Assembly: GCA_964402975.1 (NCBI GenBank)
Contig: CAYOEM010000012.1
Location: forward strand, 1,293 to 65,292
Length of the DNA stretch: 64,000 bases
Reading direction: 5' to 3'
Source: an uncultured Polynucleobacter sp.
GTDB lineage: Bacteria; Bdellovibrionota_B; Oligoflexia; Oligoflexales; RGVZ01
The notes under the pieces were generated by a model. It was not told the origin of the DNA. It made no database searches and was given only the letters and a program-made list of their open reading frames with translations. Below, piece by piece: positions 6,713 through 23,734 of this stretch. The stretch's first letter is position 1, and the number at the start of each line of letters is the position of its first letter. A program made the position numbers and the translations under genes.

Positions 6713-7858
6713 TTAAACGTCTTTTAACAGACCCGAGAGTTCTTGTACGCCGCACAGTGTGATTTCATGCCCGTCTATGATCCTTGTCTCTGGTTCTGAG
6801 CGGTCTAGAGTTACGAGTATGTTTTTGCCGTCTGGGTAGCGACTGCGGAAAGACCTTAGGCCCCGTGATGCGTCAAAATTTGATGATTTGCTTTTACATT
6901 CAATGGCTACAAACTTTTTACCACGGCTTTTTTTGACCACAAAATCTACTTCGTGGCGCTGCTTGTCTTTCCAGTAGTAAATTTCATTTCGTAAAAATAT
7001 AGCTTGAAGTTCTCCCAGTACAAGGTGCTCAAGCAGGTTACCTCGATCTTCATGGTCAATGGCGGAGTTGCCTCTAAAAAAACTGACAAACCCAGTATCA
7101 AAGCCGTAGATCTTTGGTTGAGCCTTAATTTCACCACTTCCGCCGTCTGAAAACGGGCGAATCACCGAGGCAAGTAGCGTCGTTTCTAGAATTTCAAGAT
7201 AATTGAAGACGGTCTGCCGGCTTATCTCACAGGGTACGGCAAACCCCTGAGCTTCGAACAAATTCCCACTTTGCCGAAAAAGAAGCTCAATAAAACGCAT
7301 AAAACTGGCGCGTTTCTCAACAACAAAGAGCTCCTGCACGTCTTTCGCCCAATAACTTTCCATCCATTCTACGTAGTCAACATCGTTAATCTTAGGGGCT
7401 AGCAAAAATGGTGGCAGCCCTCCGCGGATCATTCGCATGTCAACATCAATCGAGGTTAGTGATTTCATATCGCTGTAGATTGCTGGCAACAGCCACAATT
7501 CTCGTTTGCGACCTGTGAGAGTATCCTTGAACTTTGATTTGGCTGCGAGCGTGGAAGATCCGGTTGCAATGACTTTCAAATGAGGAAAATGATCGGCGGC
7601 AATTTTCAAAATTTCCGAAGGATTTATAAGTCGGTGAATTTCATCCAAGACAATGGTTTTTTTGCCCATACGTTTTAGAAAACGCTCTGGTTCATCTAAA
7701 GTCTGCCTCACGCTGGGGAGTTCGCAGTCGAAATACTCTACGTTGGGCAGGCTTTTCACCAAAGTGGTTTTACCGACTCGGCGCACACCGCTGAGCCAGA
7801 GAACATTTCTGTCCTTCAGGAGTTCTATGATTCGATTTTTCCAGTAAGTTCGGTCCAT
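6713..7858 (-). CDS. AAA+ ATPase of the AAA_14/DUF4143 type
   Basis: Walker A GVRRVGKTT, Walker B VLDEIH, and a C-terminal region typical of DUF4143 ATP-binding proteins. Confidence 0.75.
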   Translation of the reverse strand: MDRTYWKNRIIELLKDRNVLWLSGVRRVGKTTLVKSLPNVEYFDCELPSVRQTLDEPERFLKRMGKKTIVLDEIHRLINPSEILKIAADHFPHLKVIATGSSTLAAKSKFKDTLTGRKRELWLLPAIYSDMKSLTSIDVDMRMIRGGLPPFLLAPKINDVDYVEWMESYWAKDVQELFVVEKRASFMRFIELLFRQSGNLFEAQGFAVPCEISRQTVFNYLEILETTLLASVIRPFSDGGSGEIKAQPKIYGFDTGFVSFFRGNSAIDHEDRGNLLEHLVLGELQAIFLRNEIYYWKDKQRHEVDFVVKKSRGKKFVAIECKSKSSNFDASRGLRSFRSRYPDGKNILVTLDRSEPETRIIDGHEITLCGVQELSGLLKDV

Positions 7859-8082: not shown

Positions 8083-8158
8083 CGCGGGGTGGAGAAGTTG
8101 GTATCTCGTCGGGCTCATAACCCGAAGACCGTAGGTTCAAGTCCTACCCCCGCTACCA
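8083..8158 (+). tRNA. initiator tRNA-Met (CAT anticodon)
   Basis: 76 nt. Nearly collinear with E. coli tRNA-fMet: CGCGGGG acceptor, three G-C pairs closing the anticodon stem (TCGGG CTCATAA CCCGA), T arm GTAGG TTCAAGT CCTAC, encoded CCA. Position 1:72 is an unpaired C:U, compared with C:A in E. coli. Confidence 0.9.
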
Positions 8159-8262
8159 ACATAAGTCACGGCTCTGATTGAATAAATCAGGGCCGTTAAT
8201 TTTTTGGGCTGGGGCAAAACAGGCTCCGATGGCAAACAAATGGCAAACATGAAAACGAAATC
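8109..8262. repeat. left copy of the 154-bp direct repeat (attL-like)
   Basis: Identical to 22701-22854 except T8210 versus A22802. Covers the 3' 50 nt of the tRNA, its terminator and about 100 nt downstream. Confidence 0.9.
8170..8205 (+). terminator. rho-independent terminator of the tRNA gene
   Basis: 10-bp stem GGCTCTGATT / AATCAGGGCC with one G-U pair, followed by GTTAATTTTTT. It lies inside the 154-bp repeat, so a second copy sits at about 22762-22797. Confidence 0.6.
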
Positions 8263-8270
8263 CACCGAAA

Positions 8271-9428
8271 TCACCTCACAACTGAGAGCATTGGTCGCTC
8301 AGAAACTTGGCTCTGAAATGACCTTGGACCAACGCTAAACATCGCTGCGGTGTCGGCGATCTTGTTGGGTAACAGATGAAGATAGATCATGGTCGTCTTC
8401 ATCTCCTTGTGACCCAAAATCTTACTGACAGTCACCAGATCAACGCCTCTGTCGATCATCAAGGTTGCCGCAGTATGACGTAGATCATGAAATCTTAACT
8501 CTCTAACACCTGAGGCTTCCAAATCTTTCTTAAAGTATCTTCTGATGAAGACCTCGTGACAGATGGGTGCGCCAGTCTCTTGGTGGTAGAAAAGCGTCGA
8601 AGCTGTGCTTGGTCGGTCCGTGCGGTAAAGTAGATCTTTGATCTCCGTTGCCAGGATTGAACTGCAAGGTACATTCCTAGCAGCTTTGCCCTTTGTCGGA
8701 CCCATTGCTTGTATGGATCTATCAAACTGGCGATCAACTCTAATCACATCGCCGACGGCCTTAGCATTGGGGAATTTCAGTCCCCAGATTTCACCTGAAC
8801 GCATCCCTGTGTTTAGCGCGGTTAAGTACACCACATAAACCCATCTCTCAGCACTTCCCGGTGGATACTTCGCGTTAGCAAAGGCCAAGAACTCCTCAGA
8901 CTCGTCACGATCCCAAAAGTCGATGTCTTTGCCGTCAGCCTTGAGCATCTTAAAACCCGCAGCGGCATTGAAGGGAATCCTCTTACAATCAAATGAGTGC
9001 TTAAGGATGGCTTTGATCACCTGGATCTTGTGATTCACAGTTTGGTTAGCCAGCCCCTCTCGGAGCTGGCGTGCCTGAAACTCTGTCAAAAAACCGTGAT
9101 GAAATCTGTCCGTCTTAAGCTTTCCTAGGCTAGGAAGGGTCTCGCGTAGAATCCCGTTCACTTTGATGGTGTGGGATTTGCTAAAAGATCTCCCGCGCGT
9201 CTCTAGCCAAAATTTGGCCTCATCGGCAAACGTCGTATGTTCCAGGTAAGACGCACCTTTTAGAGCTTTGTCAGCATCGAGTCGCTTCATAATGAACGAT
9301 TGTGCCTGCTCCCGAGTCTCAAACCTGAGGTTACGATGTCTACTGCCTCGTCCATTTTCCAAGAATCTAACTTGGAATTTTTGCTCTCCAGACCTTGTTT
9401 TTAACTTCTTTATTTTTGGAATTCTCAT
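8271..9428 (-). CDS. int: tyrosine-type site-specific integrase
   Basis: C-terminal catalytic motifs RFHDLRHTAATL, LGH and MIYLHL (R-HxxR-Y). Adjacent to the tRNA and att repeat. Confidence 0.9.
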   Translation of the reverse strand: MRIPKIKKLKTRSGEQKFQVRFLENGRGSRHRNLRFETREQAQSFIMKRLDADKALKGASYLEHTTFADEAKFWLETRGRSFSKSHTIKVNGILRETLPSLGKLKTDRFHHGFLTEFQARQLREGLANQTVNHKIQVIKAILKHSFDCKRIPFNAAAGFKMLKADGKDIDFWDRDESEEFLAFANAKYPPGSAERWVYVVYLTALNTGMRSGEIWGLKFPNAKAVGDVIRVDRQFDRSIQAMGPTKGKAARNVPCSSILATEIKDLLYRTDRPSTASTLFYHQETGAPICHEVFIRRYFKKDLEASGVRELRFHDLRHTAATLMIDRGVDLVTVSKILGHKEMKTTMIYLHLLPNKIADTAAMFSVGPRSFQSQVSERPMLSVVR

Positions 9429-9751
9429 AGTGCCTCACTGTCTACCCCATCTAAATTGGGGTTTTGAGAGGCAAACCAAGCCAAAAATATGTCGGTTCTA
9501 ATATAGAGCCTTCGATTAAGCGTTAGGAATAGCCTACTGGGGACACCTCTCATGGCTCCTCGATAGCGCCAATCATAGATGGTCGCTTTAGAGTAGCCGA
9601 AGTGTTCAGCAAACTGTTCTGTCCGCATAAGCTTTGGCAGGCTGTCAAAGAGCTGACCTGGCAGCATGAATTCGCTGCCAGTCAGTGTACTGGATACAAT
9701 GGTTTCTGGACCAAGGCCACTTTTATGTTCTTTTTTAAAAGCTTTAGTCAT
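9425..9751 (-). CDS. AlpA/excisionase-like helix-turn-helix DNA-binding protein
   Basis: HTH segment TEQFAEHFGYSKATIYDWRYRG. 4-bp overlaps with both the integrase and the upstream gene. Confidence 0.6.
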   Translation of the reverse strand: MTKAFKKEHKSGLGPETIVSSTLTGSEFMLPGQLFDSLPKLMRTEQFAEHFGYSKATIYDWRYRGAMRGVPSRLFLTLNRRLYIRTDIFLAWFASQNPNLDGVDSEAL

Positions 9752-11097
9752 TGTAGACCGCCCTTTCTACCGCTAGAGAGGTCGTAGGTCGTAGGGTCGT
9801 AGGCATCAATGCAATTTGGCTTAATTGTGGCCTTCCAGCGTGGCGAGCTACCTGATATATCCTCAAAGATCTTTCCCTCAGCCAAAAGATTTTGGATCAT
9901 TTCAGTAATCTCATTAGCAGGCTTATTTTTGTGAAAGACCACCTTTAAGATCTCGGTTCGCGTTAGGCCTTCTTCGGAAGCCTTGAGAGCCGCTAGCAAT
10001 TTTGCCTCGCCGTGGGAATTGGTTCTACGGACGTTGTTCAGAAAAAAGCTTGCACAGACATCCCGTGAATGATCCGTGATAATCTTTGCCGCCTTTAAGT
10101 GTTGGACATCTACTTGATTTTGGCAGTCAAACAGGGCGAAAGAGCAGGCAAGTCGCCGTAATATCGGAATATTTCGTGCTGTAAGATCTGTCATGACGGA
10201 TTCATCGTCAGAGAAGGACTCCGAATATATTTCCGTCCAAAGGTTTTTGGCATTATCTGTGAATGTTATCTCCCTTACGGTCTTGGCGTGTTTTATTACA
10301 TTTTTAATCTCTTTCGTAACTTCCAGGAGTTTCTCTTTGGGGATTGTGCCCCCTAGTGGAAGTAACTTTGACTTAGAGCATTGTATAAAAATAAACCGGT
10401 TCAAGACGCCGTTGTGGAAGTCCACCTCATCTACATATTTGTCAAATTCACGTTGTGTTATATGTGCGATCAAGGAGCCGAATGTATTATGGGCCACCGC
10501 AGGATTATGTTTAACCAAGGTTTGCAAGGTGTCAGCATCCCAGAGGCTGCGCAGGTTTCCGGAAAGGGTGTTTCCTTCGCGCTTTGTAACCTTCAGTACA
10601 TTTACAAACTCCTCTTCGATGATAATACAACTTAGGCTTTCACCTTTTACATTATCAGTAGTTTTCCCTGTCTGACCCGGATCTTTGGCCTTGAGATGGT
10701 GTATTAGGCCTTCACCAGAGCTCAAACCGCGCAAAATTTGAGCCTGGCAGAAGCGCTCGTCAATTTCTTGGAAAATACTTTTAACTAACGCAGTGCTCGT
10801 ACCTTTTCTGCCCGTCGAAGTCGGTCCAATAAGCAGCACAAACTGATTAAGGAAGTGTTTGGAACCCCCTGCACACCAGAACGACCTACGACCTACGACG
10901 TGAGCAGTGAATAAAAGAATCTGGATAAGAATAGGCAACGCAGCCGCTTCCGTGAACGGCATCACCTGTTCGACTATCTTTCCGGCACGACCAAAGTCAC
11001 TCATATTTGGTAGCCAACTAGACTTAGTTTCAGTTTTATTGTCAATAATTTCAGCTGAATAACATTCAGTCGGGTGGTTGATTTTTGAATCACTCAT
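9748..11097 (-). CDS. P-loop NTPase-like island replication or helicase-type protein (DUF3987-like)
   Basis: Walker A-like LLIGPTSTGRKGTST, Walker B-like SCIIIEEEF, and a C-terminal winged-helix-like segment. Its position between alpA-like and small genes resembles P4/PICI-type elements. The family assignment is from memory only. Confidence 0.45.
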   Translation of the reverse strand: MSDSKINHPTECYSAEIIDNKTETKSSWLPNMSDFGRAGKIVEQVMPFTEAAALPILIQILLFTAHVVGRRSFWCAGGSKHFLNQFVLLIGPTSTGRKGTSTALVKSIFQEIDERFCQAQILRGLSSGEGLIHHLKAKDPGQTGKTTDNVKGESLSCIIIEEEFVNVLKVTKREGNTLSGNLRSLWDADTLQTLVKHNPAVAHNTFGSLIAHITQREFDKYVDEVDFHNGVLNRFIFIQCSKSKLLPLGGTIPKEKLLEVTKEIKNVIKHAKTVREITFTDNAKNLWTEIYSESFSDDESVMTDLTARNIPILRRLACSFALFDCQNQVDVQHLKAAKIITDHSRDVCASFFLNNVRRTNSHGEAKLLAALKASEEGLTRTEILKVVFHKNKPANEITEMIQNLLAEGKIFEDISGSSPRWKATIKPNCIDAYDPTTYDLSSGRKGGLQ

Positions 11098-14373: not shown

Positions 14374-15213
14374 TCAAGCGCTCTTCTTGGTGTCTTCAAC
14401 CGTGATAGGTTCGTTTGTGGGGTTGCTTGGGCCAACGCTCGGATTTGCTGCATGGGGTGCGGGGGCAGCTGCCGCCGATTTTTGCCTTCTTTTTCGACGC
14501 TTTTTCTTCGAAAGTCCAATTTCTCCGGCATCCATTAACGACTCTTTTGTGACAATGGCTTTTAGAGACTCAAACACATCTTCCATGTCTAGTCTCGCGT
14601 CAGCTTGTCGATTTAACTCTCTTCTGAGTACATTCAGCACATCCTGAGAGAATAAGACCTTTACCACTACGCTTGGCTTTAGTGCCTTTTTCTGCCCCCA
14701 GAACTCGTCTAACAGCTCGTTAGTCATGGATTTTTTACAAAGCATGGAAACCATGCCCCAGAAGGATTCGAGATTTGATTCCAAGAAGTCAGTTTCAAAA
14801 GCTAAATCACTTTTAATGCCCTCATTTTCAGCAAATGAAACGTGGTAGAGCTGCCAATGGCAACCGTTAGTTAGAAGCACCCATGGCAGGCCTGATCGCG
14901 AGGCATAATTCTCAGCTTGCTCAATGTGCTTAGCAGATAATGATTTAACGCCTGCGGCTTTTGCTTCTACCAGAAGTTCAATTTCACCATCGATTTTCAG
15001 TGCGATGTCACAGTAGCGGTCTTTGATGGCGAGTTCTTTTGAAATTTCTCCCTTGAGGCTGTCATATTCCAAAGCCTCTTCAAAAAATTTGGTTAGATAC
15101 ATTACGGTGTCCGATTCATTCGCATCACGCTCTCGGGCTTCCTTGAACACCTGGGCATATTTTTTGAGAGTCGCCGCGAGTTTTTTATCGAGTGCCATAA
15201 GAATCCTTTCCAA
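14374..15213 (-). CDS. stand-alone type I restriction enzyme HsdR N-terminal-domain (PD-(D/E)xK fold) protein with a basic tail
   Basis: DIALKIDGEIELLVEAKAAG...QAENYASRSGLPWVLLTNGCHWQLY matches the HSDR_N_2 pattern (D...ExK...Q..Y...TNG..W). C-terminal KKKRRKRRQK tail. Confidence 0.65.
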   Translation of the reverse strand: MERILMALDKKLAATLKKYAQVFKEARERDANESDTVMYLTKFFEEALEYDSLKGEISKELAIKDRYCDIALKIDGEIELLVEAKAAGVKSLSAKHIEQAENYASRSGLPWVLLTNGCHWQLYHVSFAENEGIKSDLAFETDFLESNLESFWGMVSMLCKKSMTNELLDEFWGQKKALKPSVVVKVLFSQDVLNVLRRELNRQADARLDMEDVFESLKAIVTKESLMDAGEIGLSKKKRRKRRQKSAAAAPAPHAANPSVGPSNPTNEPITVEDTKKSA

Positions 15214-18229: not shown

Positions 18230-18436
18230 ATGATAAAAGTCATATCTTTTGTTCTTCTTTCCAACATCGTACTTACTAGCTGCGAGACAACCACAGATTG
18301 GTCAAAAGTTGATTTAAGCCCTCTACAAGCTCTTACGAATACTTGGGCGCCGCCAAGAGTTTCTGAGGGCGAGTGCAGAACATATACGAAGCTAGATGAA
18401 TGGGGCACGCCCGTGCAGGTGACCCGATGCAAATAA
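18230..18436 (+). CDS. small lipoprotein
   Basis: The ATG at 18230 has AGAAAGG upstream. Lipobox VLTSC. Confidence 0.45.
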   Translation: MIKVISFVLLSNIVLTSCETTTDWSKVDLSPLQALTNTWAPPRVSEGECRTYTKLDEWGTPVQVTRCK

Positions 18437-19269
18437 GAAGATTTAAATTTAATGCGTTCATTATAGCATTTGTTTTAAACGCCATCCTATTACTTAACGG
18501 CTGCAAAGCAGCTTATACCTACGAGCTATACAAATACAGTGCCACCAAGGAAAACTTGATTGCTACATTTCCGGGCGAATCAGAATTTCAAGCTGAGCAT
18601 AATTGCAAAATTTTCTCTGAAATGCATGACAAGGAATATGGCACAAGGTTAATGTGTTTGAAGGGTGGCAGCTCTGCAGACGGAACGCCCGGTGGCGGCA
18701 ATACAGGAATGCTAATATTCATTTTGATTGGAATGGCCGCAGGGATGTTACTTGTTAAGTTCTATAAAACAATGACCGTAAATATAGCGGCGTGCATAAA
18801 ATGTCGTAATCCAATAGCAGAAATCGATTTGCGCTGCTCCAAGTGTGAAGAACCGGTAATCTCTCAACGCTCATCTAACAGCTCAACAACGGCCGAGCGC
18901 TGGCATAAGCATTGTGATGATTATGAGATAGACCCTCAACATCGCGAGATTCTTTGGCAGAAGGGTAGAAAACTGGATAAATCTGCTGTTATTGGCTGGA
19001 GTGTCCTATCTATACTCGTCGGAGCTGTCTATTACGCTTGTTTGAATACGAATTCAGGTGAGAGTAATCAGAGAGGTCATGTATGGCTGATTTTTCTACT
19101 GGCTAGCCTCGTGTTTGCCTCATTGGTGGCTCTGAATGGACAAATGTTTTCCTGGATCAAGGAAGCGTTCGGTGCTGACAAGGAGAGGTATGAACAGTCA
19201 ACTATACTATTTGGTTTTTTTATTTGGATGGTCTGGGCTTTTTCGTTTTGGAGTAAAGTTTCTATTTGA
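18427..19269 (+). CDS. lipoprotein or membrane protein with a zinc-ribbon motif
   Basis: Lipobox LLNGC. CIKCRNPIAEIDLRCSKCEEP. Several TM segments. Confidence 0.5.
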   Translation: MQIRRFKFNAFIIAFVLNAILLLNGCKAAYTYELYKYSATKENLIATFPGESEFQAEHNCKIFSEMHDKEYGTRLMCLKGGSSADGTPGGGNTGMLIFILIGMAAGMLLVKFYKTMTVNIAACIKCRNPIAEIDLRCSKCEEPVISQRSSNSSTTAERWHKHCDDYEIDPQHREILWQKGRKLDKSAVIGWSVLSILVGAVYYACLNTNSGESNQRGHVWLIFLLASLVFASLVALNGQMFSWIKEAFGADKERYEQSTILFGFFIWMVWAFSFWSKVSI

Positions 19270-19698: not shown

Positions 19699-21519
19699 TC
19701 ATGTGCAATTTGGACATTTATAATTCGAAGTCTTCTTTGCTAGGGAAAACGTGATTCCTTTCGAATTTTTTTTGTTTAGTATTTTATGAATCTGCTGTGG
19801 CGCAAGTTTAAAATTCTTGCTGCATAAACAGCACCGTTTATTTTTGCAACTCTGGCAGTACAAACCCCTGGCGCATCTAGCTGTAAATATTTTCTCACAA
19901 ATAGAACATGTGGTAGTGTAGCGTTCTCTTTCGGATTTATAGAGACCTCGGCATTTAATTGAACAAAAAATGTTCTTCCCCTTTTTCTTAGCCCTGCGAT
20001 GGTGGCGTCCATATGGGAACATCGAATTACAGTAATCACAAACCGAGGTATCTTTGCTGCAGGACGCACAAATTCTTTTGCGGGAGACTGCGTCCATCAC
20101 AGCACCGCAATCGACACACGACTTGGGCTCTAACCCGGCCTTTGATCTGATACACTTAGAGCAGTAGTGACCACCATTTTTTGGGAATTGTTCAATTGGA
20201 AGAGCTGGTCGACCTTCACAGCCTCTGCAAATTCGTTGGCCTGATGTTTTCTCTAGCTCGTCACTTGTTCCGCAATTTAGACCGTGCTCCCCGCAATAGG
20301 CATTTATAGCTTCTGGTTTTTTGGTGAACTTTTTTTTGCCGCAAACGCAACAATCCCTTTCGAAGTACTCATTGCCGTCCTCGAGACCAATGAATTTTCC
20401 AACTCTCAAATCATGCATGGCTGTAATGTGACCATGAGATATAATTTTAAGATTCGTTTGAGTCTCTGTGTGGTATTTAAGCGCGCATTGATAGTATTTT
20501 GAAGTTCTTTGAATGGGTTTTTCCCCTGCCCATAGCCATACGAATTTGATTTTCGCTTTGGCACAATATTGCTTTAGGGCCTGGTTCTTTTTTGCTGAGC
20601 GTTCTTGTTGTCTCCCCTTGCATTCGGCGAGCCCCACGTCTTTGCCTTGCCTGATGATGGCGAAGTCAGGGCAAAAGTACCACCGCCCGATTTTAATTGA
20701 ATGTCTGTTATTTTTTGGGACTTTAGATAATTTTTCAATAACGTCCCCAGTGGGAAAATGATCAAAGAGAAAAAATAAAGTGGCAAGTTCGCTAAGACTA
20801 TCGTACCTCATAAGCGTTTTCGTTCTATTTGTATGGATAAATCCAGAATATGAAGATTCAAGTGTTATAAGTTTTGCCTCGGAAAGTGCGTGCTTGAACG
20901 AATCCATACTTGTTTCTGGATGCACGGCTTGTCGGTGTCGATACCATGGTCGAATATCACCGATGGCACCAAAGGTGCTGGCTTTGCATATGGGGCATTC
21001 TAGTTTTTCGAGCTTTGATTTGACTGTCCTGATGTTTGCACCTACAGATCGGCAATGGTCGCAAATCAGGTCTAAGTAGTGCTTGAGGTTTCCCCAGTTA
21101 GGATCGACCTTGATGGGATTTATCCTAGAAGTACATCCATTTATCATACAAGTGATCTCGATAGGCAGTTTCGGGTCGAGCGCAGGGTCGACAGCGAGGC
21201 GGTCCTCTATCAAAGCGATGTGGTTGTGAAGGTGTGCGAGTTCGGGCAGTTTAAAGATTTCTAGTCCTAAAAGAAAGTCTTCGGTCTTATCCTTTTGCTT
21301 TAGTTGTCTTTTTTTGAAGTGTTCACTATAGTCCAGATGCTTTACCAATCTTAAGTCACTTCGTCTTGTAGTAATTCCTAAAGCGGAACGATCAAGCGCT
21401 TTAGCGATATCGGCATCGGTGCGACCTGAACGCCACATGTGCTCTATGGTGTGATCTTCCTCTCTCGAATAGTTTTTTCGTTTCATATCGTATCCCCACA
21501 AAAACCAAGGCTCGGACAT
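19699..21519 (-). CDS. multidomain protein: Myb/GcrA-like HTH, then TnsA-N-like PD-(D/E)xK nuclease, then multiple zinc ribbons
   Basis: N-terminus YSREEDHTIEHMWRSGRTDADIAKAL. Core DSLSELATLFFLFDH...WYFCPDFAIIRQGKDVGLAECKG matches the TnsA endonuclease N-terminal pattern (S-LE ... PDF ... ExK). The C-terminal ~230 aa holds at least 6 CxxC...CxxC pairs. The likely start is M12 at 21486, which has GGGGA upstream. Confidence 0.6.
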   Translation of the reverse strand: MSEPWFLWGYDMKRKNYSREEDHTIEHMWRSGRTDADIAKALDRSALGITTRRSDLRLVKHLDYSEHFKKRQLKQKDKTEDFLLGLEIFKLPELAHLHNHIALIEDRLAVDPALDPKLPIEITCMINGCTSRINPIKVDPNWGNLKHYLDLICDHCRSVGANIRTVKSKLEKLECPICKASTFGAIGDIRPWYRHRQAVHPETSMDSFKHALSEAKLITLESSYSGFIHTNRTKTLMRYDSLSELATLFFLFDHFPTGDVIEKLSKVPKNNRHSIKIGRWYFCPDFAIIRQGKDVGLAECKGRQQERSAKKNQALKQYCAKAKIKFVWLWAGEKPIQRTSKYYQCALKYHTETQTNLKIISHGHITAMHDLRVGKFIGLEDGNEYFERDCCVCGKKKFTKKPEAINAYCGEHGLNCGTSDELEKTSGQRICRGCEGRPALPIEQFPKNGGHYCSKCIRSKAGLEPKSCVDCGAVMDAVSRKRICASCSKDTSVCDYCNSMFPYGRHHRRAKKKGKNIFCSIKCRGLYKSERERYTTTCSICEKIFTARCARGLYCQSCKNKRCCLCSKNFKLAPQQIHKILNKKNSKGITFSLAKKTSNYKCPNCT

Positions 21520-21678
21520 TATTAGCGAGGGTTTCTCCAGTAGCTCAAAGTCCTAGAAAATTACTGAAAAAAACTGGGCTACCACCTGAAAAGCGTTTAC
21601 ACGGCTTAGGCTTGATAGCTCTTGTTTTTCTTTCATTTTGACCCAACCTTAACGGGAGTCGTCTTTTTTCTTGGTGTA

Positions 21679-22458
21679 TCAATAATCTTCATACTCCAAG
21701 TCTTGAAGTATGGTAATCATCGCCACATCATCTACGCGGAAGAAAGCATCTTCCCCATCGTCATCCTCAAACTCGATGAATTCACTGCAATTTGGGTCCA
21801 CGTCGAGACGATTTATCAGATCTGAAAATTGGCCTTCAATTGAATCAAAGTCATTGTCATATGTATTGTCTGGTTCGATTTTGAATGCCAATGGTTGTGG
21901 TGCATTGGCAAGAGTCACGCAAAGATGGTTAATGGGATGTTTGCCCTGTTTAGGTTCGATGTCGGTTATGTCTGGGTCCCAAAGTGTATGGAAATGTATA
22001 ACGTGCTTTAAATTGATAGCCACCTCTAAATTTTCTGAATCAAAGCAGAAGAACTCCAGTGGTCTTCGATCAATTACTTTTCTTAATCTTTGGATTGTTC
22101 CGGCAGAGACAGGGAAATAGTGCTTTGAGCCACCCCTTAGAAGTAAAACAAGAGTCCAGCGTAGGGGATCTGCATCGATTCCTGTTTCTTGCTCTGCTTC
22201 GAGAATCTTGTCGGGATCTGAAAAATCTTTTCTAGGCTGAAGTTTTTTGAGCTTTTTCTCGTGGCCTTTTGTTGCAGGAAACGCGTCACCCAATTCACAG
22301 TTGAGTGCGTCGCAGATTCTCGCGGCCATATGCATCTTTACCGCTTGTCTGGCATTTTCAATCCGCTGAATCTGTTGTTGACTTGTTCCAACTGCTTTAG
22401 CGAGGTCTCGTTGAGACATCCCACGAGCGTTTCTGAATTCTTTGATTTTGTTTTTCAT
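21679..22458 (-). CDS. XRE-family HTH regulator fused to an unknown acidic C-terminal domain
   Basis: N-terminus KEFRNARGMSQRDLAKAVGTSQQQIQRIENARQ. About 190 aa of unrecognised C-terminal sequence ending in an acidic tail. Located upstream of the 606-aa gene and in the same orientation. Confidence 0.7.
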   Translation of the reverse strand: MKNKIKEFRNARGMSQRDLAKAVGTSQQQIQRIENARQAVKMHMAARICDALNCELGDAFPATKGHEKKLKKLQPRKDFSDPDKILEAEQETGIDADPLRWTLVLLLRGGSKHYFPVSAGTIQRLRKVIDRRPLEFFCFDSENLEVAINLKHVIHFHTLWDPDITDIEPKQGKHPINHLCVTLANAPQPLAFKIEPDNTYDNDFDSIEGQFSDLINRLDVDPNCSEFIEFEDDDGEDAFFRVDDVAMITILQDLEYEDY

Positions 22459-22565
22459 TTAGAAACTCTAAATTTGCTCTATAAACAAAATGTGTCTATC
22501 GTGACACGCACAGCGTGTCAAGGCGGATTCTCGAAGAAATCTGTTTGTTGGCATAAAGCTGGTCG

Positions 22566-22601
22566 ATAGCAAACCGTTAGCAAACATCCCGCCAAAACCA
22601 A
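22566..22601. repeat. 36-bp direct repeat, copy B
   Basis: Identical to 17783-17818. The following ~45 nt align by eye at roughly two-thirds identity with 8231-8277, the arm next to attL. Confidence 0.8.
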
Positions 22602-22700
22602 CCGAAATGACCCGTACTAGACCGAACATATTTTGTGACTTAACTTGCCGTAGTTATTGAAAAAAACTAACAATTACGCTGCGTTAAAAAGAGCGTCTTC

Positions 22701-22854
22701 TCGGGCTCATAACCCGAAGACCGTAGGTTCAAGTCCTACCCCCGCTACCAACATAAGTCACGGCTCTGATTGAATAAATCAGGGCCGTTAATTTTTTGGG
22801 CAGGGGCAAAACAGGCTCCGATGGCAAACAAATGGCAAACATGAAAACGAAATC
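22701..22854. repeat. right copy of the 154-bp direct repeat (attR-like) with a partial tRNA-fMet 3' half
   Basis: See 8109-8262. It lacks the tRNA 5' half, so it is not a functional tRNA gene. Confidence 0.9.
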
Positions 22855-22952: not shown

Positions 22953-23420
22953 ATGTCCCTGCTAGAACGAGTCGTTAACGCTTTAAATAAAAGTAAAATC
23001 CCATACGCGATCGTTGGCGGTGTTGCCGTTGCGCTTCATGGTGCTCCCAGAGGTACGATCGATATAGATCTTGTGATTAGCCACAAATTGCATTTTTTTA
23101 CGTCACTTGAAAAATGCCTGAAAGATTTGGGTTTCCTGCCGCGCCTTCCTGTTACTGCAAGTGAGGTTTTTAATTTCAAAGATGAGTATATCTCGCGGCG
23201 AAATCTCGTCGCCTGGAGTTTTTTTAACCCTGCCAACCCACTCGAAGTGATTGACATAATCTTGACTCATGATCTTGATGATTTGAGAACAGTGAACAAA
23301 AAAATGGGACTTTCTACACTCAAGGTTCTTGCGGTTGAGGATTTGATTCAGATGAAGAAAAAGTCGGGTCGCCCACAGGATCTCGAGGACGTGAGGGTTT
23401 TGAAAGAGCTCAAAAAATGA
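22953..23420 (+). CDS. small nucleotidyltransferase-fold protein
   Basis: YAIVGGVAVALHGAPRGTIDIDLVI (GG...HG..R.T.DID) plus C-terminal EDLIQMKKKSGRPQDLEDV, typical of minimal NTase proteins in toxin-antitoxin-like pairs. Confidence 0.55.
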   Translation: MSLLERVVNALNKSKIPYAIVGGVAVALHGAPRGTIDIDLVISHKLHFFTSLEKCLKDLGFLPRLPVTASEVFNFKDEYISRRNLVAWSFFNPANPLEVIDIILTHDLDDLRTVNKKMGLSTLKVLAVEDLIQMKKKSGRPQDLEDVRVLKELKK

Positions 23421-23734
23421 AAAAATCAAAAGAAAAGCGAAGTAAAAAGTTGAAAGACAGCAAGCAGGCCGACCTTTCCAAAAGGCCCACTCAGCTAGCG
23501 AGTAAATCTCAAATGCTTGATCAAGATTTGGAGGACGTGACTCCAATTGTTCAATTTCTAGAAGACTTCCGCGCAATGACGGATCCCAGAGCGCAGCAAA
23601 AAAGCAAACTAATCAGTATCAAGATACCTGAGCCAATGCTTGCGGCATTTAAATATAAATCTGCTCGGGCAAATACCCCATATCAGACCAAGATCAAACA
23701 ACTGATGGCCGAGTGGCTAGCCAGACCTAGTTAA
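23417..23734 (+). CDS. BrnA-like (CopG/RHH-type) antitoxin-family protein
   Basis: C-terminal KLISIKIPEPMLAAFKYKSARANTPYQTKIKQLMAEWL matches the BrnA pattern (isirl...l..fK...g..YQT.IN). 4-bp ATGA overlap with the upstream gene. Confidence 0.5.
   Translation: MKKSKEKRSKKLKDSKQADLSKRPTQLASKSQMLDQDLEDVTPIVQFLEDFRAMTDPRAQQKSKLISIKIPEPMLAAFKYKSARANTPYQTKIKQLMAEWLARPS

Follow-up and report, generated by a model that had tools for sequence, protein, structure and literature searches.

A theme now emerging is that of regulators encoded ahead of immune genes that would otherwise be toxic, and only three families of such "controllers of adjacent pathways" have been characterized: CapW/BrxR, CapH together with CapP, and CapK together with CapS (PMC13373217). 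Among nucleases, an EDxHD motif and NUMOD modules are the defining features of the Vsr-like homing family (PMC3239194). The locus described here consists of two co-oriented genes in a 64,000-nucleotide stretch of DNA (the window; positions 1,293 to 65,292 of contig CAYOEM010000012.1, uncultured Polynucleobacter sp. assembly GCA_964402975.1). The first gene encodes a regulator with an XRE-type helix-turn-helix (HTH) and a conserved C-terminal domain (XRE-CTD), and the second encodes a large cysteine-rich protein that is very probably a nuclease. The locus resembles the Cap-type controllers in that a predicted repressor, which in part of its contexts immediately precedes diverse genes of nuclease or putative immune function that could be toxic, has a predicted operator at its own promoter and is combined, as one regulator family, with unrelated putative effectors.

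The module, made of two uncharacterized protein families, is a putative regulator-gated nuclease and probably a switchable defense or selfish module. The reading that we prefer, with a probability of about 0.5, is that an autorepressed sensor-regulator gates a swappable, solitary, DNA-targeting nuclease carried as island cargo, probably for defense. Both open reading frames (ORFs) that an earlier reading of the stretch from sequence alone (the sequence-only reading) had reported exist, and the nuclease more likely starts at M12, giving a product of 595 amino acids (aa). The features of the pair are as follows.

22492-22521, minus strand: promoter/operator TTGACACgctgtgcGTGTCAcgataGACAC, directly upstream of the regulator gene
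21679-22458, minus strand: XRE-CTD regulator gene, 259 aa, an ORF with a full-length family
22288-22446, minus strand: XRE HTH, residues 5-57 (Pfam HTH_3, E = 3e-15)
21691-22185, minus strand: conserved, beta-rich C-terminal domain, residues 92-256 (~165 aa), from alignment and model
21487-21678, minus strand: 192-nt spacer between the regulator and nuclease genes
19699-21486, minus strand: nuclease gene, 595 aa from M12; the maximal ORF of 606 aa begins at 21519

Operator and promoter of the regulator gene

The element TTGACACgctgtgcGTGTCAcgataGACAC contains a -35-like TTGACA and, 17 nt after it, a weak -10-like TAGACA. It also contains the overlapping palindromes TGACACGC-tgt-GCGTGTCA and GTGTC-acgata-GACAC. 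The pattern TTGACAC-N6/7-GTGT occurs at 1 site in the 64-kb window, compared with 0.04 expected, and the window's own copy has the N7 spacing. One copy was found upstream of the regulator gene in all 11 family loci (L001 to L003 and L006 to L013), whose proteins are 32 to 100% identical, and the pattern was additionally present in L014, L049, and L051. It was missing from L004 and L005, which share the HTH alone with the family. When the pattern was relaxed to ACAC-N5-8-GTGT within 200 nt upstream of the gene, it was found at 25 of 39 genome loci versus 10 of 2,521 background windows (0.4%). Most of the other genome loci carry tandem one-mismatch variants, ACTC-N6/7-GTGT, as judged by eye. Because a noncoding palindrome and an invariant recognition helix are conserved together across phyla, the comparative evidence that the family proteins repress their own promoters is strong, with the palindrome as the predicted binding site.

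No second copy of the operator was found ahead of the nuclease gene in the window, and neither a terminator nor a consensus promoter was found in the 192-nt spacer. As the spacer has none of these elements, read-through from the autoregulated promoter into the nuclease gene would be the simplest model, and the two genes would then be cotranscribed. The spacer could not be aligned with that of the orthologous Logan contig L008 (~42% identity). A structured RNA in the spacer was considered and rejected (z = -1.5).

L008 lacks the first ATG of the 606-aa ORF and has a stop codon at that position. It does share with the window the ATG of M12 and a GGAG-like ribosome-binding site, and M12 is also the start chosen by independent gene calls, which makes the 595-aa product probable. 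Residue numbers of the nuclease follow the 606-aa ORF throughout.

The regulator protein

The sequence-only reading described the regulator as a canonical XRE HTH fused to unrecognized sequence, and this description holds. The recognition helix, TSQQQIQRIE, is almost invariant family-wide in the alignment, and the ~190 to 200 aa beyond the HTH belong to no family in Pfam, NCBIfam, PADLOC, or PHROGs. The conserved C-terminal domain has the signature W101, R124, F136-x-x-F-D140, A147-x-N149, D232-x-D-G-E236, and F239-x-R241. Four of its residues (F136, F139, N149, and D232) are invariant in 28 sequences, in which G93, D97, W101, R108, R124, D140, A147, D234, G235, E236, and R241 are nearly invariant. 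Conservation of the domain extends across phyla.

An AlphaFold model of the regulator, based on an alignment of 14 sequences, had a mean predicted local distance difference test score (pLDDT) of 76 and a predicted template modeling score of 0.66. The C-terminal domain was modeled as two beta-beta-alpha-beta-beta-beta units with a pLDDT mostly of 76 to 91 and three loops of lower confidence. The protein had earlier been said to end in an acidic tail. The acidic residues are there, but they are not a loose tail; they form the conserved DxDGE...FxR motif in a confidently modeled beta-hairpin of the folded domain. An internal duplication of the domain was not significant (hhalign E = 0.027, probability of 2%).

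Foldseek searches against the PDB with the regulator gave matches to the HTH only (C.BclI, C.AhdI, CylR2, ClgR, CapH-N, and Stl, among others). For the C-terminal domain, no PDB match was obtained by Foldseek or with a 17-sequence profile. The HTH resembles those of type II antitoxins in the library scan (Y4mF/HipB, E = 2e-11; HigA, PezA, and MqsA), and the PADLOC capH match (E = 9e-8) is confined to residues 3 to 53, that is, to the HTH. The regulator is most likely a dimeric XRE-type repressor whose C-terminal domain would serve dimerization and signal sensing. This role is favored, and a partner-specific antitoxin domain is unlikely, because the domain is unchanged across partners.

The nuclease protein

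The domains of the second protein, as delimited by alignment, motifs, and model, are as follows.

21337-21480, minus strand: three-helix Myb/SANT- or GcrA-N-like HTH, residues 14-61 (HMMER relatives, model)
20923-21150, minus strand: N-terminal Cys-pair module, C124/C129, C153/C156, and C175/C178, with His nearby (alignment)
20500-20844, minus strand: PD-(D/E)xK nuclease core, residues 226-340 (motif and model)
19702-20352, minus strand: C-terminal array of 12 conserved Cys pairs, residues 390-606 (alignment)

The 606-aa protein had nothing significant in Pfam, NCBIfam, PADLOC, or PHROGs, and even at E ≤ 1 it was matched by no Pfam or NCBIfam family. A PDB sequence search with the single sequence and with a core-domain profile gave chance matches only. 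No relative was present among 185,579 species-representative genomes, and a word-indexed search recovered nothing beyond the cluster to which the protein itself belongs. When 1.84 billion representatives were scanned exhaustively with HMMER, one full-length relative was found besides this cluster, P0018 (606 aa, 33% identity), in which all motifs are kept. Shorter relatives were P0019 (386 aa), P0020 (314 aa, starting inside the core domain), and P0022 (134 aa). In all, the protein has only about five relatives in 15 billion proteins. Four small proteins of ~160 aa (P0021, P0023, P0024, and P0025) matched only the N-terminal HTH. They consist of two to three tandem copies of this module, have subthreshold matches to Myb_DNA-binding (E = 6e-5, narrowly missing the cutoff) and GcrA (E = 3.5e-3), and are apparently an uncharacterized family of repeat DNA-binding proteins.

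The GcrA/Myb-like HTH proposed earlier is thus supported indirectly, by the subthreshold matches of these relatives, the 606-aa protein itself having no Pfam match. Its helices were modeled at residues 19 to 30, 35 to 42, and 46 to 55 with a pLDDT of ~80, and Foldseek matched them to LuxR-type HTHs. The N-terminal Cys pairs are conserved in three full-length members, at a model confidence of only ~60.

The core contains the catalytic motifs SELA (243-246), CPDFA (283-287), and AECK (298-301; ESK in P0020). Residues E244, D285, E299, and K301 do not vary among the relatives in which they are covered, down to 31 to 33% identity. The model has the order alpha-beta-beta-beta-alpha-beta (helix 242-254, strands 260-302, helix 308-322, and strand 325-331) with a pLDDT of 83 to 94, compared with 70 for the whole protein. 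Both the modeled fold and the putative catalytic residues would place the core in the PD-(D/E)xK superfamily, and restriction-fold nucleases are enriched among the Foldseek matches.

The best Foldseek match in the PDB was TnsA (1t0f_B; probability of 0.98, 130 columns), which was not significant (E = 0.08); the next matches, EcoT38I, the restriction-fold structure 3ijm, VRR-NUC, AgeI, BsaWI, and FAN1, were not significant either. Matches in BFVD, a collection of predicted viral structures, were significant (E = 1.1e-5 to 5.6e-5, probability of 0.99 to 1.00, 276 to 366 columns), with a high root-mean-square deviation and with the aligned query region unreported. They comprised a group I intron-associated Vsr homing endonuclease, a Bacillus phage endonuclease, and two unnamed or uncharacterized viral proteins; lower matches were Vsr, DUF559, HNH, Mrr, and VRR-NUC proteins. 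The sequence-only reading had named a TnsA-N-type core. What remains of this is a general PD-(D/E)xK resemblance, since the TnsA match has an E value of 0.08, no TnsA profile matches, and the Vsr-type matches are stronger (E = 1e-5). The nuclease assignment itself is supported by the invariant motif, the modeled core, and fold matches (BFVD, E = 1e-5) but not by any sequence profile.

The protein contains 37 Cys residues, and the C-terminal pairs are conserved in all members that cover them. The 12 pairs agree at the sequence level with the earlier count of at least six zinc ribbons and are predicted to form about six metal-binding Cys4 sites of the zinc-ribbon or treble-clef type; the array had no significant family or PDB match. 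Taken together, the 606-aa protein is very probably a DNA-binding PD-(D/E)xK endonuclease of undescribed architecture, as judged from its model and conserved motifs. The statement that the architecture matches no named system also stands for PADLOC, Pfam, NCBIfam, and PHROG families.

Genes downstream of the regulator family

The same nuclease follows the regulator in three independent contigs with at least 75% regulator identity, namely, the contig of P0003, L008, and L001. (The JGI contigs of P0003, P0006, and P0013 were assessed from gene tables.) Regulators with ~55% identity are followed by other genes. Some precede a superfamily 2 (SF2) helicase protein with the domains Mrr_cat, ResIII, Helicase_C, and 4xHA (PADLOC mREase_IV, E = 2e-18), and others precede a 471-aa Cys-rich protein, next to which lies a DrmD-like SNF2 gene (PADLOC, E = 1e-51). 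Searches of Pfam, PADLOC, and the PDB gave no match for the 471-aa protein, which is unrelated in sequence to the 606-aa nuclease. In L011, a regulator of 33% identity located between an integrase and a resolvase is followed by a protein with MrcB_N and NOV_C domains. A protein of 220 to 222 aa without a Pfam or PADLOC family is located directly downstream of regulator homologs in two unrelated genomes (36% identity, E = 1e-47).

L006 2677-4092: 471-aa protein with repeats of the form hydrophobic...Y...K.K..C..C....C.C and a VPD...IDAK motif
L009 6169-6831 and L049 8929-9597: shared downstream protein of 220 to 222 aa

A co-oriented gene of nuclease type was present downstream in 7 of the first 13 contexts (the window, P0003 to P0007, P0011 to P0015, L002, and L003); these genes belong to four unrelated families, one of which was assigned by a motif seen by eye, and none has a proven role in defense. 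Several regulator homologs stand alone, some of them amid housekeeping genes. The neighborhood survey called for in the earlier note thus confirmed the pairing for close relatives (at least 75% regulator identity) and showed that it is not obligate, more distant regulators having other partners or none. Because related regulators precede unrelated and mostly methyltransferase-independent nucleases, the nuclease slot looks like swappable cargo.

Two further observations concern individual loci. The 220-aa gene of L009 overlaps the stop codon of the regulator gene and is followed by a 236-aa gene, and a resolvase gene is located immediately upstream of the regulator. A ParE-like gene adjoins the family member in L002.

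Distribution of the regulator family

The family comprises 14 full-length clusters in the metagenomic protein collection (32 to 85% identity) and 39 full-length homologs in the species-representative genomes. Most of the latter are from Enterobacterales; the others are from Gemmatimonadaceae, Terriglobales, Edaphobacter, Hyphomicrobiaceae, and Sphingomonas. The Enterobacterales homologs (L015 to L052; 29 to 36% identity, full length) are the final gene of CP4-type islands, after YeeU/CbtA and DUF4942. Beyond the island end, the next gene varies and may be the integrase of the following island, HNH_2, an SF1 helicase-PLD protein, or OsmC. About 90 of 5,426 complete E. coli genomes carry a homolog, and those listed are annotated merely as "helix-turn-helix transcriptional regulator." No viral relative was found in 2.9 million viral contigs with the XRE alignment, P0018, and P0019 as queries.

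NZ_CP058596.1 (L055) 10001-10798: regulator homolog of E. coli UPEC_U013, at the end of a CP4-type island

The family is widespread yet unstudied. Across these genomes, it is the regulator that appears to be conserved, with the nuclease as one among several alternative cargo genes.

Divergence of the two genes

The two genes of the window differ in their divergence from L008. The regulator genes share 76% nucleotide identity (dS of 1.29, dN/dS of 0.13), and the nuclease genes share 95% (dS of 0.10, dN/dS of 0.35), where dN and dS are the nonsynonymous and synonymous divergences. Both dN/dS values indicate purifying selection. When positions 20300 to 22650 of the window were compared, the breakpoint was located near 21220, within the nuclease gene and past the HTH and linker, where identity rises to 95 to 100%. 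This jump in divergence indicates a recent recombinational exchange of the nuclease body. Such an exchange fits modular cargo swapping; its agreement with a self-mobile nuclease gene is weak.

The island and its setting

The pair is carried by an island of ~14.6 kb that is integrated at tRNA-Met and bounded by 154-bp direct repeats with 1 mismatch between the copies.

8083-8158, plus strand: tRNA-Met (CAT), integration target of the island (ARAGORN)
8109-8262, plus strand: attL-type direct repeat, 3' half of tRNA-Met plus 104 bp downstream (154 bp matching 22701-22854)
8271-9428, minus strand: tyrosine integrase of the island (Pfam Phage_integrase, E = 5.8e-27)
9748-11097: DUF3987 primase/helicase-like gene, inside the island
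14374-15213, minus strand: stand-alone 279-aa protein with an HSDR_N_2 or type IIG restriction endonuclease-like N-terminal nuclease domain (Pfam, 1.5e-7; PADLOC, 1.1e-7)
18400-19269, plus strand: predicted membrane protein of 289 aa with an internal CxxC...CxxC and no family match, convergent to the nuclease gene
22701-22854, plus strand: attR-type direct repeat, right boundary of the island (repeat comparison)

The regulator and nuclease genes are the final two island genes before attR, both on the minus strand and reading inward. Their placement at the distal end of an island, as the sequence-only reading had it, is confirmed by the att repeats, the integrase, and tRNA-Met. The absence of a methyltransferase, TnsB, and TnsC that it had noted likewise holds, as none of these and no rve/DDE domain was found in the scanned ORFs of 8.1 to 23.7 kb, in which ORFs below ~100 aa were only partly scanned. 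Several of the remaining island ORFs are without any family match. The island is syntenic with a JGI contig that carries genes of 449, 297, 274 (HSDR_N_2), 595, and 259 aa.

The 279-aa HSDR_N_2 protein has no partner genes, and its counterpart in the syntenic JGI contig is the 274-aa protein. The 289-aa membrane protein also adjoins the regulator-nuclease pair in Logan contig L001. It is conceivable that the island is a phage satellite or an integrative mobilizable element. Outside attR (22953-23734), a 155-aa nucleotidyltransferase gene (DUF6036/AbiEii-like) overlaps by 4 nt a 105-aa CopG/BrnA-antitoxin-like gene; the two form a probable toxin-antitoxin-type pair in the chromosomal flank. A gene for an AAA_14 and DUF4143 ATPase (6713-7858, minus strand) is located directly to the left of the tRNA-Met integration site.

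Proposed mechanism

In the mechanism that we infer, a dimer of the regulator would bind ACAC-N6/7-GTGT over the -35 (TTGACA) and the weak -10 and hold its own transcription low. The same repression would hold transcription of the nuclease gene low through read-through. Occupancy of the C-terminal domain by a signal would relieve the repression, and the nuclease would then be expressed on demand against invading DNA, acting in a restriction-like or abortive manner. The Myb-like HTH and the zinc ribbons would grip the DNA, and the predicted PD-(D/E)xK site (E244, D285, E299, and K301) would cut it. A defense role is suggested by the island-end position, the lack of a methyltransferase, and the presence of type IV-like nucleases in the same slot elsewhere.

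Several points weigh against this proposal. Many regulator homologs have no downstream nuclease, including the enterobacterial CP4-type branch and P0013 and P0014, which lie among housekeeping genes. The assignment of the 471-aa partner as a putative nuclease comes from a motif seen by eye. PADLOC assigns neither gene nor any partner to a known defense system. No sequence profile ties the 606-aa protein to any nuclease family, and its fold matches in the PDB are weak (E ≥ 0.08). Finally, 192 nt is a long distance between genes of one operon, the spacer lacks conservation, and the nuclease gene may have an unrecognized promoter of its own.

Alternative explanations

The alternative that survives best, although we consider it unlikely, is a toxin-antitoxin or addiction module that stabilizes the island, with the nuclease as the toxin and the regulator as an antitoxin that represses through its HTH and neutralizes through its C-terminal domain. 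The likeness of the HTH to type II antitoxins, the regulator-first gene order, the autoregulation, and the location on a mobile element would all fit, and toxin-antitoxin-like genes are found nearby, namely, the nucleotidyltransferase/CopG-type pair just beyond attR and the ParE-like gene near the family member in L002. However, a partner-specific neutralizing domain should covary with its partner, and the invariant residues of the C-terminal domain are the same with this nuclease, the Mrr-helicase, the McrB-N and NOV_C protein, the 220-aa protein, or no partner. The unconserved 192-nt spacer is also atypical for tight coupling, and the divergence histories of the two genes differ.

Somewhat doubtful too is the explanation that the regulator is a cI- or Stl-like master regulator of the island, controlling excision, replication, or accessory genes, and that the nuclease is an enzyme of the island life cycle, acting in TnsA-like end cleavage, replication, or packaging; we regard it as improbable. 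The family does recur as the last island gene, near attR here and after DUF4942 in CP4-type islands, and its members in L011 and L009 are located between integrase and resolvase and immediately downstream of a resolvase, respectively. The top PDB fold match of the nuclease is TnsA, Stl is among the fold matches of the HTH, and the DUF3987 gene is satellite-like. Against this, nearly all regulator-bearing islands are without the nuclease, which argues against a core role in the life cycle. TnsB, TnsC, and other Tn7 features were not found, no TnsA profile matches, and some regulator homologs are in nonmobile housekeeping contexts.

The divergence data and the fold matches bear on a third explanation, in which the nuclease gene is a selfish homing-type endonuclease gene that moves independently and landed behind the regulator by chance. 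Its significant fold matches are led by Vsr-type homing endonucleases associated with phage group I introns and by related phage endonucleases, and DNA-binding modules tethered to a small nuclease core are typical of homing endonucleases (PMC3239194). The mosaic divergence (95% for the nuclease gene versus 76% for the regulator gene, with the breakpoint near 21220) would also be consistent with such a history, but the breakpoint is inside the gene and not at the gene borders. The gene occupies the same place behind the same regulator family in 3 of 3 independent contigs with context. Neither an intron, an intein, nor a phage context is present, nothing was found in 2.9 million viral contigs, and the EDxHD motif is lacking, the nuclease having E...D...ExK. 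We regard homing as distinctly improbable.

A fourth explanation is that the 606-aa protein has no catalytic activity and that, with no more than a nuclease-like fold retained, it serves in DNA binding or regulation. This would agree with its many DNA-binding modules and with the lack of a sequence-profile link to active nuclease families, but it is very unlikely, since all four canonical catalytic positions are invariant to 31 to 33% identity, the pattern expected of active enzymes.

Significance

Of the two families, the regulator family with its operator is the more general and more testable discovery. The regulator consists of one polypeptide, the operator predicted for it is unusually clear and is conserved across phyla, and its homologs in ~90 complete E. 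coli genomes allow easy genetics. For the C-terminal domain, no fold relative is known, and the signal that it may sense could be a new one. The nuclease is nearly an orphan in its architecture, which combines a predicted classical restriction-type active site with what appear to be exceptionally many zinc-binding modules. Should it prove active and specific, it would represent a new solitary enzyme of restriction or defense and possibly a modular scaffold for DNA recognition. If both genes are ordinary, the locus is still a well-delimited tRNA-Met island with a conserved island-end regulator.

More far-reaching, and put forward only tentatively, is the proposal that the family is a new class of single-protein sensor-repressors with an undescribed sensing fold, which gates swappable solitary nucleases at island ends from Enterobacterales to Acidobacteriota, and that the 595-aa protein is an inducible nuclease of a new type, directed against phages or plasmids.

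Comparison with known systems

Restriction-modification systems controlled by C-proteins, such as C.AhdI and C.BclI, were the comparison drawn in the sequence-only reading. The locus shares with them an XRE HTH for which C.BclI and C.AhdI are among the best structural matches, a co-oriented downstream nuclease, and a predicted palindromic operator at the regulator's own promoter. This conserved operator supports the part of the comparison that concerns control of the nuclease gene by the XRE protein. The analogy to C-proteins is defeated by size, the extra domain, and the missing methyltransferase: the regulator has 259 aa with a conserved extra domain of 165 aa, whereas C-proteins have ~75 to 100 aa, and no methyltransferase is among the scanned island genes. 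In addition, no known type II enzyme is related to the nuclease, and some members of the regulator family have no nuclease at all.

With TnsA of Tn7, the nuclease shares the catalytic order E...PD...ExK with a "PDF" strand, and TnsA is its top Foldseek match in the PDB (E = 0.08). In contrast to TnsA, it has a Myb-like HTH and ~15 Cys pairs. It has no match to the Tn7_Tnp_TnsA_N or TnsA_C profile at E ≤ 1, the core-domain profile finds no TnsA chain in the PDB, and neither TnsB (DDE transposase) nor TnsC (AAA+) partners nor transposon ends are present here. Membership in the TnsA family was rejected on the basis of the missing profile match and the missing TnsB and TnsC partners.

The Vsr-like EDxHD homing endonucleases, such as I-Bth0305I, provide the best significant fold matches and likewise tether DNA-binding modules to a small restriction-fold nuclease. 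The nuclease described here differs in having E/D/ExK and no NUMOD, in being much larger, in its C-terminal poly-Cys array, and in its location in a chromosomal tRNA-Met island. Membership in this family was also rejected, as both EDxHD and NUMOD are missing and the likeness is in design only.

Type IV nucleases (Mrr and McrB-N/NOV_C fusions) are likewise methyltransferase-free single genes carried as mobile-island cargo, and they occur in the same slot behind related regulators. Unlike them, the nuclease has no region homologous to Mrr_cat, NOV_C, or a known modification-reading domain, and a specificity for modified DNA would be pure conjecture.

The regulator itself resembles repressors of the Stl and cI type in its N-terminal XRE HTH, its C-terminal domain for binding a putative partner or signal, its size in the range of ~250 to 280 aa, its predicted autoregulation, and its location in a small integrative island. 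It differs from them in its unrelated C-terminal domain and in the position of its gene at the island end, far from the integrase, and some of its homologs are outside mobile elements.

Compared with the Cap-type controllers, the regulator has no WYL domain; no peptidase, kinase, STAS, or WYL gene is nearby; and the similarity to CapH is limited to the HTH. Many homologs are not beside a recognizable immune gene, and the fold of the C-terminal domain is uncharacterized. The regulator family is a candidate fourth family of immune-gene controllers.

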